Shown in pieces: positions 5,585-58,596 of a stretch of 64,000 nt of DNA. Source of the DNA: a virus; the IMG/VR virus record IMGVR_UViG_3300029106_000003, positions 1,317 through 65,316 of that record; one strand, written 5' to 3'. The notes under the pieces are model-generated. The model had not been told where the DNA came from. It was given only the letters and a program-made list of their open reading frames with translations, and made no database searches. The translations under genes and the position numbers were made by a program. Each line of letters begins with the position of its first letter. Position 1 is the stretch's first letter.

Positions 5585-6190
5585 TTATTCGTTATTTAAT
5601 CGGTGATAAAAATCGAGCTTGATACGGTCATAGACAGAAAATACATTGGTTTTAGCCCTGTCATCGTTCACCGTATGGGCATATATCTCGTTCTCGACAA
5701 CCTCTGCCACCCAGTCTATCCATTCAGGATTGGTATAACATGAAAGACGTTTACCCCGATAGGTAAAGTAGTCGAAACGGCTGTTCCTGTCCTCGTACTG
5801 GTTCGTGAGATTTCCGATAATTTTTTCATGCGTCCTATTCCTGTCGGATATATGGTTTTCCTTCCTAACTTGTTCGATAATTTCCAAAACCCGTCTGGCG
5901 GAAAGGTTGAAAAATTCACTCGTCATGTTCTTTATTCGAAGCTGCGTTTCCGGTCTAAGACCTTCCGATATGTCGGACAACATGTTATTCTGGTCGTTCG
6001 TTTTTTCGATAAGCTCTTTCAGGGATTCGCCGTAATCCTCCATACTCTTGGTGATAATCGATTTGAACCACTTGAAGCAGGCCACCATCATCATGGCCGA
6101 CAACACCAAGAAGAATGCTGCGGTCATCACCAAGAACCCCTGTTCGCTTATCCCTCTGGCTACCTCCGTAGCCTCGTTTATCCCTCCCAT
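5585..6190 (-). CDS. N-terminally membrane-anchored hypothetical protein
   Basis: TM FLVMTAAFFLVLSAMMMVACF near the N-terminus; 1-nt spacing to neighbouring genes. Confidence 0.6.
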   Translation of the reverse strand: MGGINEATEVARGISEQGFLVMTAAFFLVLSAMMMVACFKWFKSIITKSMEDYGESLKELIEKTNDQNNMLSDISEGLRPETQLRIKNMTSEFFNLSARRVLEIIEQVRKENHISDRNRTHEKIIGNLTNQYEDRNSRFDYFTYRGKRLSCYTNPEWIDWVAEVVENEIYAHTVNDDRAKTNVFSVYDRIKLDFYHRLNNE

Positions 6191-6191
6191 A

Positions 6192-6578
6192 TCAATGTTT
6201 CTGTTTTTCGATTAACAATCTAGCTTCTCCTTTGCAGGATTCCGCATAGGCGTTATAAGCCTCGAACTCCTCTGCTTTCGTATCTCTTTGCCGAAGTATC
6301 GCCAACTCCTCCGACAATGTATATTTCCGACGAATCAATCCGTTTACCGTTTCTCCGTAGTCTATTTGGGCAGGTGGTGTTCCCGTGTCGTCCTCCGTCG
6401 CTTCCGGTGCTTCCTCGTACTCATAGACTATCGCCCCGTTCCGGTAATACATCACGGGTATTTTTCCGGGTATCTCCTCGGGAGATGGGATAGAATCTAT
6501 TCGTATGAATCCTTCTATCAGGGTTTCGCCATAATAAATATTAGTGACTCTTTCGTCGTATATTTTAATTTGTATCAT
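6192..6578 (-). CDS. Hypothetical protein downstream of the tail fibre (possible fibre accessory protein)
   Basis: ORF track; overlaps the fibre gene by 14 nt; function is positional guess. Confidence 0.55.
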   Translation of the reverse strand: MIQIKIYDERVTNIYYGETLIEGFIRIDSIPSPEEIPGKIPVMYYRNGAIVYEYEEAPEATEDDTGTPPAQIDYGETVNGLIRRKYTLSEELAILRQRDTKAEEFEAYNAYAESCKGEARLLIEKQKH

Positions 6579-37982: not shown

Positions 37983-38270
37983 TTAATCTCCACAATAACG
38001 CCCGCTTTGGTTTCTGTAATACTCTATTATACCTCTTTCCATTGCTGAGTCGAATACAATCGATTCGGGCTTTTGTGCGGGTCCCGACTTTTTCATTAAC
38101 CGGCGAGCCTCTTTTTCTGCCTTGCGGGCTTCCGCTTTCATCTTAAACCATGCGTTCCTCAAACAAGCACTGAACGACTGGCAGAACTCACGGCCGAGAA
38201 CCGAGATAGAGCGTTTATACATTGACCATGCCATTTTGAAGAGTTGCGATTTGTTGATTTTCGTTTTCAT
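37983..38270 (-). CDS. First leftward gene of the switch; basic hypothetical protein
   Basis: 95 aa Lys/Arg-rich; its -7 box TATCTTTA (38294-38301) overlaps operator O1. Confidence 0.55.
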   Translation of the reverse strand: MKTKINKSQLFKMAWSMYKRSISVLGREFCQSFSACLRNAWFKMKAEARKAEKEARRLMKKSGPAQKPESIVFDSAMERGIIEYYRNQSGRYCGD

Positions 38271-38293: not shown

Positions 38294-38382
38294 TAAAGAT
38301 ACAAGTTATATCTTGTATTTACAATAGTTTGAGCAAGATTTATCTTGTATTTAACTTTATTTATACAAGATATAGCTTGTAT
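38294..38382. promoter_or_regulatory. Divergent switch region with three 20-bp operators
   Basis: ATACAAG-N6-CTTGTAT at 38299-38318 and 38363-38382, and the degenerate copy gAGCAAG-N6-CTTGTAT at 38331-38350; centres are exactly 32 bp apart. Confidence 0.7.
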
Positions 38383-38428
38383 ATACTAATAAAAAAACGA
38401 CTTTTGTAACAGAAATAACTTTTAGGAT

Positions 38429-55791: not shown

Positions 55792-56325
55792 CTATTCCTC
55801 CTTTATAATTTCTTTCATGAAACAAATCCAGTGTGTATTAGATCGTTTGCCGGATATATGCCCGAATATTGGTTTTTCAGGTGTGAGTTTGAGAACTTCC
55901 GACACTTTGATGTCGGTCTCGTTCCATTTGAAAATCAAAAATCCTCCGGGTTTCAGGACTCTAAAACATTCTTTAAATCCCTTTGCCAGCATATCACGCC
56001 AATCTGAATACAGAGCTCCATATTTAATTTGTTGGTAGCCTGTTGGCGATGCTTTTTCGTTCAAACTTCCGTACATATCTGCCATCTTTGACTTTCCAGC
56101 ATTCCTTAATAAGTGAGGCGGATCGAAAACTACCATCGAAAAAGATTTATCCTCATAGGGCATATTTGTAAAGTCGGCTTGTATGTCGGGATTTACTTCA
56201 AATAATCTACCATCGCATAAATGAGTAGATACCTTTCGAATGTCTTGAAAAAGAACTCTTTCGTCATGTTTGTCGAAGTAGAACATCTTTCCCCCACAAC
56301 AGGCATCTAATATCGTTTTTCTCAT
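55792..56325 (-). CDS. Small amino-methyltransferase (N6-adenine or N4-cytosine DNA MTase class)
   Basis: Motif I ILDACCGG and motif IV VVFDPPHL. Confidence 0.75.
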   Translation of the reverse strand: MRKTILDACCGGKMFYFDKHDERVLFQDIRKVSTHLCDGRLFEVNPDIQADFTNMPYEDKSFSMVVFDPPHLLRNAGKSKMADMYGSLNEKASPTGYQQIKYGALYSDWRDMLAKGFKECFRVLKPGGFLIFKWNETDIKVSEVLKLTPEKPIFGHISGKRSNTHWICFMKEIIKEE

Positions 56326-56654
56326 TGCTCTCCTCCTTTCTTCAATTCAGCAATGAGGGCATCGGCACATTCTATTGCATATTGCGCTTGTGCCATTGTA
56401 TTTTTGAATCCTGTTGTGTCATTGTTATGTTGTTCAGCAGAAGTCATCATATCTTTGGCTATCTCATACCTGCGTTGCTCCCAATCAATGTTCTTGTGTT
56501 TTTCTTCTTTAATAAATTCAAGCTCTGATTGCACGTATGTACACCAACTACGCTTGTTATCAACATATTGACGCTCCACTCCTCTTTTGGTGATAATATT
56601 TTCTATCCGTGATACCTCTATGACTTCGCCAGTCGATTTAATTTTTGCTTTCAT
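56322..56654 (-). CDS. Hypothetical protein
   Basis: ORF track; ATGA overlap with the next gene. Confidence 0.55.
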   Translation of the reverse strand: MKAKIKSTGEVIEVSRIENIITKRGVERQYVDNKRSWCTYVQSELEFIKEEKHKNIDWEQRRYEIAKDMMTSAEQHNNDTTGFKNTMAQAQYAIECADALIAELKKGGEQ

Positions 56655-56685
56655 TGTTCTCCTCCTTTCATAAGTCCGGTTTCTC

Positions 56686-57299: not shown

Positions 57300-57944
57300 T
57301 TACTTCAAATCATTCATTTCATATCCCATGTTAAACAGCCATTTGAGCTCTTCCCATTCCTCGAACGTGAGGCTGGTGGTTCTGATTCGTTCCCATTCCC
57401 GTTCCTTTCCCTCATGCCTTTTCTTGTCCTCATAGAACCGCAATAGTTTCTCTCTGTCGGCTCTGAATTCTCGAAGAGACCTTGTTATCACCATAGGGTC
57501 GAAAACTCCGTAGAACGTCCCGTAAAGCCCTTGCTTGAACCGCTGGAAGAATACCATGAACTCGGTGAGCTTGAAATCGCCATAGCCGGAGATGATGATA
57601 CGGGCTATCTCCTCGTATTCCTTTTCCGTCATTCCGTCCTTGCGGACTCCCGAAAATTCGGCGAGGTCGAGAAGCTGTATTTCCAGCCACGACTCGGCGA
57701 TGTGACTGCCGAACGTCCTCGACACACGGGCTATGCTCGGAGCCTTGCCGATAAAGCAGCGTTCGAGGCTCTGGCAATAGCGGCCTTGATTGTCGGGGCT
57801 AAAAAGGCAGAGCATATTCTCCCCCGTCTTGTAGGTTGCCAGTATCTCCCGTTGCCAGCTTGGTGGCGATGGCTTCTGCAAACTCTGCATATCGCTCCTG
57901 TTTGGTCTTGGAATTAGGTTTTTGATGGATTCCGGATTGCTCAT
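57300..57944 (-). CDS. Hypothetical replication-module protein (start uncertain)
   Basis: Overlaps the upstream ORF by 146 nt in a GC-rich stretch; alternative ATGs at 57890 and 57815. Confidence 0.5.
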   Translation of the reverse strand: MSNPESIKNLIPRPNRSDMQSLQKPSPPSWQREILATYKTGENMLCLFSPDNQGRYCQSLERCFIGKAPSIARVSRTFGSHIAESWLEIQLLDLAEFSGVRKDGMTEKEYEEIARIIISGYGDFKLTEFMVFFQRFKQGLYGTFYGVFDPMVITRSLREFRADREKLLRFYEDKKRHEGKEREWERIRTTSLTFEEWEELKWLFNMGYEMNDLK

Positions 57945-58596
57945 CTCGTGCTCGTTTTAGTTCGATTATTAACCAGCGGGCAAAGTGTTGTTGTGCATCG
58001 CTGACGCTTTTTCTTGCAATACCCTCGTTTTGAAGTTTACGGATATATGCCTCGATATATAACATCGATTCGTTCTCGTCGATGTGGTTGTTCATCGATA
58101 GCGTTTCTATCCACGTTTGATTTGAGAGTAGTTCTTCACGCAGTTCTGTCAGTGGCTTGTCAACGTCTTTGCCAAAATCATCTTCTTTTTCTTTGCTTCT
58201 CGATAGAGAAGTTTCTTTTAAATCATTATCATTTTCATTATCATTATCATTATCATTTAAGCCCCCACTGGCTCGTTTGGCTCCCACTGGGTTATTTGGG
58301 GTCGAGTGGCTCGTTTGGCTCCCACTGGACTTTGATTTAACCGTTTCAGAGTTTTTGTCATTACCTCCTTTACGCCCGTTGTTCCGGTTTCTCTCGACAA
58401 TGCCCTGATATTTGAGTTCATCTATCTCGAATTGATTCTTGAAAAACTCAAATGCCATTTCAATGTCCTCCTCTACCGTAACCTCCTCGCCAAGTTGATA
58501 TTTGAATATTGCTCGAAACAGCCTGCCCAGTTGTTTGTCCGATAATTTCGATATGGGTTTATAAAATGATTTATAAATCAAAAAGCTGTCTTTCAT
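57799..58596 (-). CDS. DUF6291-like N-terminal domain protein; candidate replication organiser
   Basis: FLIYKSFYKPISKLSDKQLGRLFRAIFKYQLGEE; central low-complexity region containing the DNA repeats. Confidence 0.55.
   Translation of the reverse strand: MKDSFLIYKSFYKPISKLSDKQLGRLFRAIFKYQLGEEVTVEEDIEMAFEFFKNQFEIDELKYQGIVERNRNNGRKGGNDKNSETVKSKSSGSQTSHSTPNNPVGAKRASGGLNDNDNDNENDNDLKETSLSRSKEKEDDFGKDVDKPLTELREELLSNQTWIETLSMNNHIDENESMLYIEAYIRKLQNEGIARKSVSDAQQHFARWLIIELKRARDEQSGIHQKPNSKTKQERYAEFAEAIATKLATGDTGNLQDGGEYALPF
58222..58257. repeat. Hexanucleotide tandem repeat (ATCATT x6, one TTCATT variant)
   Basis: Encodes NDNDNDNENDND within the gene above. Confidence 0.85.
58269..58328. repeat. Two identical 22-bp direct repeats, 38-bp period (iteron-like)
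   Basis: TGGCTCGTTTGGCTCCCACTGG at 58269-58290 and 58307-58328; CCCACTGG occurs 3 times; the repeats are translated in two different frames. Confidence 0.8.

Follow-up and report, generated by a model that had tools for sequence, protein, structure and literature searches.

A candidate replication origin inside a DUF6291-encoding gene of a temperate Bacteroidales phage

The present analysis concerns a stretch of 64,000 nucleotides of viral DNA, positions 1,317 to 65,316 of the IMG/VR record IMGVR_UViG_3300029106_000003 (hereafter the window), and an element in it, at 58222-58339, that probably serves a temperate Bacteroidales (Barnesiella-type) phage as replication origin, lying in the linker-coding part of the phage's own putative initiator gene. 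The gene codes for a protein of 265 amino acids with the Pfam domains DUF6291 and DUF7833, and the element consists of a block of short phased repeats and, next to it, an AT-rich hexanucleotide array. This reading is based on the order of the N-terminal domain, sites, AT-rich tract and C-terminal domain, which is the same as in the lambda ori and in oriL of SPP1. An origin at this place had been proposed in a first-pass annotation made from the letters alone. The features of the gene and the element, all on the minus strand, are as follows:

57799-58596, minus strand: DUF6291 + DUF7833 gene, candidate replication initiator (replisome organiser); open reading frame (ORF) of 265 amino acids (aa) with the whole element inside
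58354-58587, minus strand: coding region of the DUF6291 N-terminal domain (aa 4-81; Pfam), proposed DNA-binding and origin-specificity domain
58264-58339, minus strand: repeat block, candidate initiator-binding sites (iterons); seven phased CCA hexamers and three CCAGTGGG palindrome-like cores, 55% G+C
58307-58328, minus strand: copy of the 22-mer nearer the N-domain, reading SGSQTS(H) on the gene strand
58269-58290, minus strand: copy of the 22-mer nearer the AT-rich array, reading PVGAKRA(S), in a different frame
58222-58257, minus strand: hexanucleotide array (AATGAT/AATGAA)x6, encoding NDNDNDNENDND; candidate DNA-unwinding element, slippage polymorphism and mosaic recombination joint
57970-58137, minus strand: coding region of the DUF7833 C-terminal domain (aa 154-209), exchangeable module with a presumed contact to host or phage replication proteins

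Organization of the element in the window

The repeat block contains two identical copies of the 22-mer TGGCTCGTTTGGCTCCCACTGG, at 58269-58290 and 58307-58328, offset by 38 bp, together with three cores CCCACTGG at 58264-58271, 58283-58290 and 58321-58328. All of this had been described in the first-pass annotation, including the fact that the two copies are translated in different frames (SGSQTS versus PVGAKRA on the gene strand). While the repeats are thus real, their extent and structure have to be revised, since the block runs to approximately position 58339 and its basic unit is not the 22-mer but a hexamer, xxxCCA, recurring at alternating distances of 10 and 9 bp, four such units making up the 38-bp period noticed originally. 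Tandem Repeats Finder (TRF) reports a 19-bp period in 3.4 copies over 58264-58328, each 19-bp unit dividing in two. The hexamers on the gene strand are, in order, AGTCCA, GAGCCA, GAGCCA, ACCCCA, AACCCA, GAGCCA and GAGCCA, spaced by 10, 9, 10, 9, 10 and 9 bp. Six of them were listed by the pattern RNSCCA (gene-strand 5' ends at 58321, 58312, 58302, 58293, 58283 and 58274; spacing 9, 10, 9, 10 and 9 bp), and the seventh, AGTCCA from 58331, located 10 bp upstream of the first of these, was read directly off the sequence. With a mean period of 9.5 bp, the CCA sites would lie on roughly one face of the helix.

The pair of 22-mers is the sole exact non-overlapping repeat of at least 14 nt within 120 bp in the whole window, the mean number of close 14-mer repeats in first-order Markov simulations being 0.1. 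The single full palindrome CCCANTGGG of the window is found at 58283-58291, and neither a further site of this sequence nor another repeat array was found elsewhere in the 64 kb.

Concerning the adjacent array, its coordinates stand as first given, but the six ATCATT hexamers reported there are five perfect ones and one TTCATT (58234-58239), the order being ATCATT twice, TTCATT, and ATCATT three times (TRF period 6, 6.0 copies, 93% matches, score 65). The array has a G+C content of 16.7% versus 55% in the neighbouring repeat block. The nearest-neighbour free energy of 58212-58261 is -50.5 kcal/mol, as compared with a mean of -63.3 +/- 5.1 for the window; between 54 and 64 kb no other 50-bp duplex is as unstable as this one (first of the 9,900 segments ranked), which belongs to the top 0.24% of the 64 kb. 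Both the repeats and the array are positioned between the two Pfam domains, in a part of the protein (residues 78-142) that has a pLDDT below 50 in the AlphaFold model and is predicted as a disordered linker connecting two helical domains.

Conservation of the repeats across the DUF6291 family

A profile scan of 1.84 billion representatives yielded 5,287 relatives of the DUF6291 family at E <= 0.001, and the DNA tests were performed on 35 distinct DUF6291 lineages, the loci being taken from viral contigs and phage records. The family exhibits a constant layout, in which a DUF6291 domain ending in KYxxIVERNxxNGxKGGRP is succeeded by the repeat linker, an array of dipeptides (DN, DK, DS, NE, DT, NV and others) and a variable C-domain; in the DNA, the GATAAT-type hexanucleotide array comes after the AACCCA and palindrome repeats, whose consensus is AACCCAGTGGGTT. 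The window lineage represents a diverged form of this design, in which GAGCCA has taken the place of AACCCA at four sites out of seven and a single full CCCANTGGG is kept.

In 149 family representatives, three peptide motifs of the linkers, P[VML]G, P[SNTI]G and [TPSA][QH]W, show a 3- to 6.6-fold enrichment, which control tripeptides do not, and the three are translations of one and the same palindrome, CCCANTGGG (CCCA-N-TGGG). There are 20 copies of it in 8.4 kb of linker DNA, and the 115.5 kb of flanking DNA has none. Of the 35 lineages, 19 possess AACCCANTGGGTT, a perfect palindrome of 13 bp that is absent from 115 kb of flanks, and the 25 looser CCANTGG matches in the linkers make use of two frames (12 versus 13). 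As far as AACCCA is concerned, 112 copies were counted in 5.67 kb of linker versus 35 in 118 kb of flanks with both strands counted, i.e. a 133-fold enrichment; all three reading frames are used (46, 38 and 28 copies), and successive copies are most often separated by 9 bp (22 cases), 10 bp (30), 19 bp (8) or 20 bp (18). The dipeptide Asn-Pro in the linkers is spelled AACCCA in 46 of 49 cases, eight synonymous spellings being available. In the relative L080, 75% identical to the window gene, the same three substitutions are seen in both 22-mers, CCAGTGGGAGCCAAACGAGCCA changing to CCAGTGGGGGCCAAACAGGCCA despite the different frames, which indicates that the two copies are kept alike as DNA.

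The use of three frames, the absence of the palindrome from the flanks, the spelling of Asn-Pro and the paired substitutions of L080 jointly argue that selection on the repeat block acts on the DNA and not on the peptide. The same view had been taken in the first-pass annotation from the two frames of the 22-mers, and its own test, whether the repeats would fail to be conserved as DNA in homologous genes, has turned out in favour of conservation.

The architecture is found far from the window as well. Pseudoalteromonas phage PS_L5 has the same layout, sharing AACCCAGTGGGTTAAAT with a Bacteroidales phage, and in Vibrio phage BT-1011, which has it too, the repeat is another one, of 16 nt, and a (GATAGT)n array comes after it. 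The full AACCCA/palindrome/GATAAT architecture is also shown by a DUF6291 gene missing from the annotation of a 17-kb circular record of Spirosoma sp. KUDC1026 designated as plasmid (NZ_CP056033.1; L285), at 5900-6560 on the minus strand. This record is phage-like in that it carries genes for a terminase, ERF, SSB and ParB, with no other initiator annotated. When the scan was reversed, starting from the DNA pattern, 102 of 130 matches in viral contigs were located at most 300 nt downstream of a DUF6291 domain, several of the others being the same element on the other strand; in bacterial genomes this applied to 63 of 120 loci, labelled as Bacteroides, Chryseobacterium, Clostridia, Faecalibacterium, Furfurilactobacillus, Acinetobacter, Serratia, Patescibacteria, Spirochaetaceae and others. 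By their labels, the genome records with the signature cover Bacteroidota, Clostridia and other Bacillota, Gammaproteobacteria and further groups. The plasmid collection searched gave only two matches to DUF6291, which does not appear to be a common plasmid Rep protein in that collection.

Properties of the hexanucleotide array

The array follows directly after the repeats in 36 of 37 lineages, and its A+T content averages 75% versus 62% for the genes. Among 42 distinct close-relative genes, the number of units is 4, 5, 6, 7 or 8 in 15, 11, 12, 1 and 2 genes, respectively; this comparison bears out the suggestion of the first-pass annotation that the array is slippage-prone and variable in length. 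As the unit has 6 nt, the reading frame is never broken by a change in length. The codons of the arrays are strongly biased, GAT:GAC being 128:1 (472:166 in whole genes) and AAT:AAC 81:0 (437:294 in genes). This bias is suggestive of, rather than decisive for, selection at the DNA level, because slippage homogenises arrays and the arrays may share ancestry. The alternating acidic residues may have a role in the protein, e.g. as an acidic spacer, alongside a putative role of the array as DNA. A DnaA-trio-like reading of the (GATAAT)n array was also considered and was left as speculation, the trinucleotide register fitting the published motif 3'-[G/A]AT-5' only by half.

Close relatives and exchange of modules

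About 50 metagenomic viral contigs contain the same gene with 92-100% protein identity and an almost invariant repeat block. Three further relatives, P0107, P0113 and P0115, have strongly different N-terminal parts and other linker repeats, but are nearly identical to the window from the Asn-Asp array to the C-terminus. The identity of their loci to the window DNA begins at 58246, 58250 and 58257, all three positions being inside the array, and it spans the C-domain, reaching the next gene in two of the loci. The reverse situation is represented by the L057 group, which has the N-domain in common with the window (84.8% DNA identity from 58593 to 58363) and a different C-terminal part. The N-domain and its repeats thus move together, the array serving as the joint for the swap of modules.

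Some relatives exhibit breaks at the repeat block itself. After the first palindrome core, the peptide of P0125 closely matches the opposite-strand translation, i.e. a fold-back or a chimeric contig; P0128 switches to another frame of the same strand, matching a 54-aa minus-strand ORF at 58257-58421; and P0143 loses its similarity after the motif NPVGF. These breaks, as well as that of the deletion variant P0096 described below, may be real rearrangements or may have arisen during assembly at the palindrome.

The protein as a putative initiator and the proposed mechanism

The 265-aa protein scores well above the Pfam gathering cut-offs for both DUF6291 (E 2.8e-22; 79.1 bits, cut-off 27.2) and DUF7833 (E 2.1e-11; 44.0 bits, cut-off 24.3). 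These are its only Pfam domains, matches to Phage_rep_O and DnaB_2 not being found. The PHROG matches are weak (both with E about 5e-4), comprising 'replication initiation O-like' (E 4e-4, residues 58-168, mostly linker) and 'primosomal protein', and a search of NCBIfam gave nothing useful. The DUF6291 N-domain is predicted as three helices with a pLDDT of approximately 74-86 in the AlphaFold model.

Three observations on its context suggest that the protein may be a replication initiator. The Pfam C-domains identified among 132 family representatives include DUF7833 (13), Phg_2220_C (4) and the DnaD-type replication initiation domain DnaB_2 (2); the DUF6291 gene of Vibrio phage BT-1011 adjoins a gene for a helicase loader of the DnaC/IstB type; and gp16 of Bacteroides phage BF1-TP2, annotated as a replication initiation protein, consists of a Lin1244_N domain followed by DUF7833. 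The simplest candidate for binding the repeat block is the DUF6291 N-domain, its only constant partner in cis in the relatives. In agreement with this, the basic N-domain tail RNxxNGxKGG(R/A)P goes together with the AACCCA repeats and other tails are mostly without them (23+4 versus 3, and 8 without both), it being noted that the lineages counted are not phylogenetically independent.

Binding would in turn lead to the initiation of replication. The N-domain, probably as a dimer or oligomer, would bind at 58264-58339, both to the phased xxxCCA hexamers and to the CCAGTGGG palindrome-like cores, and the sites, about 9.5 bp apart on one helix face, would allow a wrapped nucleoprotein complex to form, similar to the O-some of lambda. 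The stress from such a complex would open the (AATGAT)n array at 58222-58257 with its 17% G+C, and the exchangeable C-domain, i.e. DUF7833 here and the DnaD-like DnaB_2 or Phg_2220_C in relatives, would recruit the helicase-loading machinery. This last step is a conjecture, as neither a helicase nor a primase gene is seen among the window ORFs scanned.

A more elaborate version of the mechanism may be offered as speculation that is rather unlikely to hold in full. The array would be a conserved, length-tunable part of the origin, e.g. a periodic single-strand landing pad for the initiator or helicase loader with a unit number that is reset by slippage and tunes initiation, and at the same time a universal joint for swaps of origin specificity; the DUF6291 N-domain would read the 9.5-bp phased hexamers and one palindrome by means of a new helical domain with a basic GGRP tail; and the integrase-side copy of the element, dealt with in the following section, would couple replication to excision.

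Points against an origin and alternative explanations

Several results weigh against the interpretation of the element as an origin. Within the searches of the Protein Data Bank (PDB) and of structures, the DUF6291 N-domain has no sequence relative and no confident structural relative among known origin binders; DUF6291 is not mentioned in any paper of the literature library searched; and, as stated above, the ORFs scanned include no phage helicase or primase gene. Among the approximately 50 close relatives, the diversity of the repeat block is not below that of the N-domain coding region, a comparison without power as the N-domain is very conserved, and the variant P0096 (two contigs) lacks 29 codons, the upstream half of the block being gone. 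Finally, the AACCCA/palindrome element also exists away from DUF6291 genes: roughly half of the matches in bacterial genomes have no DUF6291 domain upstream by profile search, and phages of the L057 group contain a second copy after their integrase gene:

L180, 1601-1665 (same contig as L061): second copy of the element; found also in L178, L207, L218, L219, L235, L246, L247 and L257

This copy is identical to the linker copy over 36 nt, continues with a second palindrome, ACCCACTGGGTT, and lies in a 64-nt gap directly behind the stop codon of the gene for a tyrosine integrase; its role may be that of a second origin, of an attP arm or of a regulatory site. The copies away from DUF6291 genes leave room for a role other than, or in addition to, that of an origin.

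It should also be pointed out that arrays of the form AACCCA...AACCCANTGGGTT...TGGGTT with no DUF6291 domain detected upstream were observed in L334, L341, L370, L389 and L392 (Chryseobacterium and others), in L292, L320, L343 and L347 (Flavobacteriaceae) and in L241, some being fully symmetric, together with a long (AACAACCCAA)n run. Related binding proteins may be encoded elsewhere in these genomes, or divergent domains may have been missed by the profile.

The most serious alternative, unlikely on balance but with an appreciable chance of being correct, is a protein-binding site with another role, such as an operator or roadblock by which the DUF6291 protein would regulate its own gene, an arm site for recombination or integration, a packaging signal, or a site for partition. 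That the repeats are conserved as DNA demonstrates a function of the DNA without telling which one; attP arms are often located after the integrase gene, where the second copy of the L057 group is positioned; and AACCCA...TGGGTT arrays that are symmetric and intergenic, no DUF6291 gene being detected, make up many of the genome matches. On the other hand, the element lies about 250 nt inside a coding region, which is no promoter position, it is always followed by the AT-rich hexanucleotide array with the locally least stable duplex, and the protein has alternative C-domains that are DnaD-like (DnaB_2) or Phg_2220_C, a helicase loader gene adjoining in one phage. The element is, moreover, present in a Vibrio phage without an integrase gene in the surrounding 6 kb, and two sites in one genome are known from SPP1 too, in the form of oriL and oriR.

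The idea that the repeats are a by-product of a low-complexity, slippage-prone linker, with selection on the peptide (an (Asn-Asp)n spacer and NPVG or KPSGL motifs), is very improbable. It would agree with the predicted disorder of the linker and with the array, which keeps its frame, always encodes Asp/Glu-X dipeptides and varies freely in length. The repeat block, however, behaves differently: AACCCA and CCCANTGGG give unrelated peptides in the different frames (NP, KP/EP and TQ; PVG, PSG and TQW), the synonymous sites of Asn-Pro are frozen, the spacing of 9-10 bp is no multiple of 3, the motif is a perfect DNA palindrome, one copy is situated in non-coding DNA, and an offset of 38 bp between the 22-mers of the window is impossible by in-frame duplication. 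The peptide-level explanation is therefore largely refuted for the repeat block, but may apply to the array. As to chance similarity or an assembly artefact, which the shortness of the repeats might suggest, its probability is negligible in view of the uniqueness of the close exact repeat in 64 kb against the simulated value of about 0.1, its presence in approximately 50 independent metagenomic contigs and the conservation of the architecture across phyla. Having considered these alternatives, a replication origin within the DUF6291 gene is still regarded as the probable identity of the element.

Other features of the window

The window belongs to a temperate phage: portal and head genes are present along with genes for anti-repressors and regulators, and there are palindromic operators at 38.3 kb. 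The last-mentioned region, 38299-38391, was examined as an alternative origin candidate. It contains three copies of a palindrome of about 20 bp (ATACAAGWTATATCTTGTAT-like; TRF period 32, 2.9 copies) in the gap between a minus-strand gene, 37983-38270, and plus-strand sequence from about 38431 that translates as MRIRDIIEQKGITTKELAERMGIS, a helix-turn-helix-like start. The palindromes were judged to be lysogeny-switch operators and not an origin. The GC skew declines steadily along the window and is uninformative with regard to an origin, since almost all genes are on one strand.

The gene next to the putative initiator gene is kept beside it:

57300-57944, minus strand: DUF6633 gene, downstream of the initiator gene (Pfam DUF6633, E 5.7e-12)

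As listed, this ORF and the end of the initiator gene share 146 nt (57799-57944), and in L078 and L080 the neighbour is called as a protein of 87-105 aa starting after a gap. The overlap and the shorter calls suggest that the true start of the DUF6633 gene is probably an internal ATG. Further downstream, 334 bp at 56322-56655, covering a 110-aa ORF (56322-56654), are 93% identical to DNA of cr128_1, an uncultured phage of human faeces. No other near match to a 5-kb query was obtained from the phage collection, which suggests a recent gene exchange with an otherwise unrelated phage.

Comparison with known replication origins

Origins inside initiator genes are textbook knowledge. In the O genes of lambdoid phages, the N-terminal half together with the iterons forms a type-specific module and the C-terminal half is exchangeable, which is the pattern of the window gene and its relatives. 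The lambda ori lies centrally within the gene O, with initiator-binding repeats succeeded by an AT-rich tract (PMC7466680), and the order along the window gene, i.e. N-domain coding part, repeats, AT-rich tract and C-domain coding part, corresponds to it (PMC7466680). The likeness extends to the placement of the repeats between the parts coding for an N-terminal region, DNA-binding in O and proposed to be so in the window protein, and a C-terminal region and to the variation of the repeat number between relatives; the iteron number in O varies as well, adding residues to the protein, with four in lambda versus six in Stx phages, and for the iterons of phage P27 a synonymous recoding experiment has been performed (PMC7466680). 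The two systems differ, however, in several respects. There is no sequence relationship to O, the only link being the weak PHROG match, mostly in the linker; the unit in the window is a 6-bp site every 9-10 bp with palindrome cores, whereas lambda has four 19-bp inverted-repeat iterons; the AT-rich element of the window is a hexanucleotide microsatellite; and its host is a Bacteroidota bacterium.

The oriL of SPP1 also combines direct repeats with a DNA-unwinding element rich in AT inside the gene for the origin binder, gene 38 (G38P), a similar oriR lying elsewhere in the genome (PMC6316719). The window gene resembles it in having the repeats and the AT-rich element within the gene of the proposed binder, and oriR is comparable to the second copy of the L057 group. 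The differences are that the protein belongs to another family, that the window holds one copy of the element only, and that SPP1 encodes its own loader gp39 and helicase gp40 beside gene 38, neither of which is among the window ORFs scanned.

The initiators with a Lin1244_N (DUF4373) domain, exemplified by BF1-TP2 gp16, are alike in having the same DUF7833 C-domain and tandem repeats in the linker: the inter-domain linker at 2819-2860 of L082 (BF1-TP2 gp16) holds a 21-bp unit, TTATTTCTTCCGAAGAAAAGA, twice in tandem, with an inverted repeat inside each copy, which makes this linker an analogous candidate for an origin within the gene in a different initiator family. The N-domains are nevertheless unrelated (hhalign probability 0.7%) and the repeat sequence is different. 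The iteron origins of plasmids such as R6K, RK2 and pPS10 consist of helix-phased direct repeats, to which the initiator binds, by an AT-rich unwinding region, the iterons being usually 17-22 bp long and located outside the rep gene. The helix-phased arrays and the AT-rich region are alike, and the window sites differ as hexamers inside a coding sequence.

Significance

What is new here is the protein family, undescribed in the literature searched, and the design of the sites, which differs in detail from the known systems by its 9.5-bp phased hexamers, one palindrome and a hexanucleotide microsatellite. If the origin reading is true, DUF6291, with its 5,287 representative clusters, would acquire a function as an origin-binding initiator, and the phased AACCCA sites together with AACCCANTGGGTT and the GATAAT-type array would locate the origins of many phages and prophages. 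One DNA motif read in three frames also provides a teaching case for separating selection on DNA from that on protein. In practical terms, the element could serve for replicons for gut Bacteroidales and for the reading of prophage coverage peaks in metagenomes.

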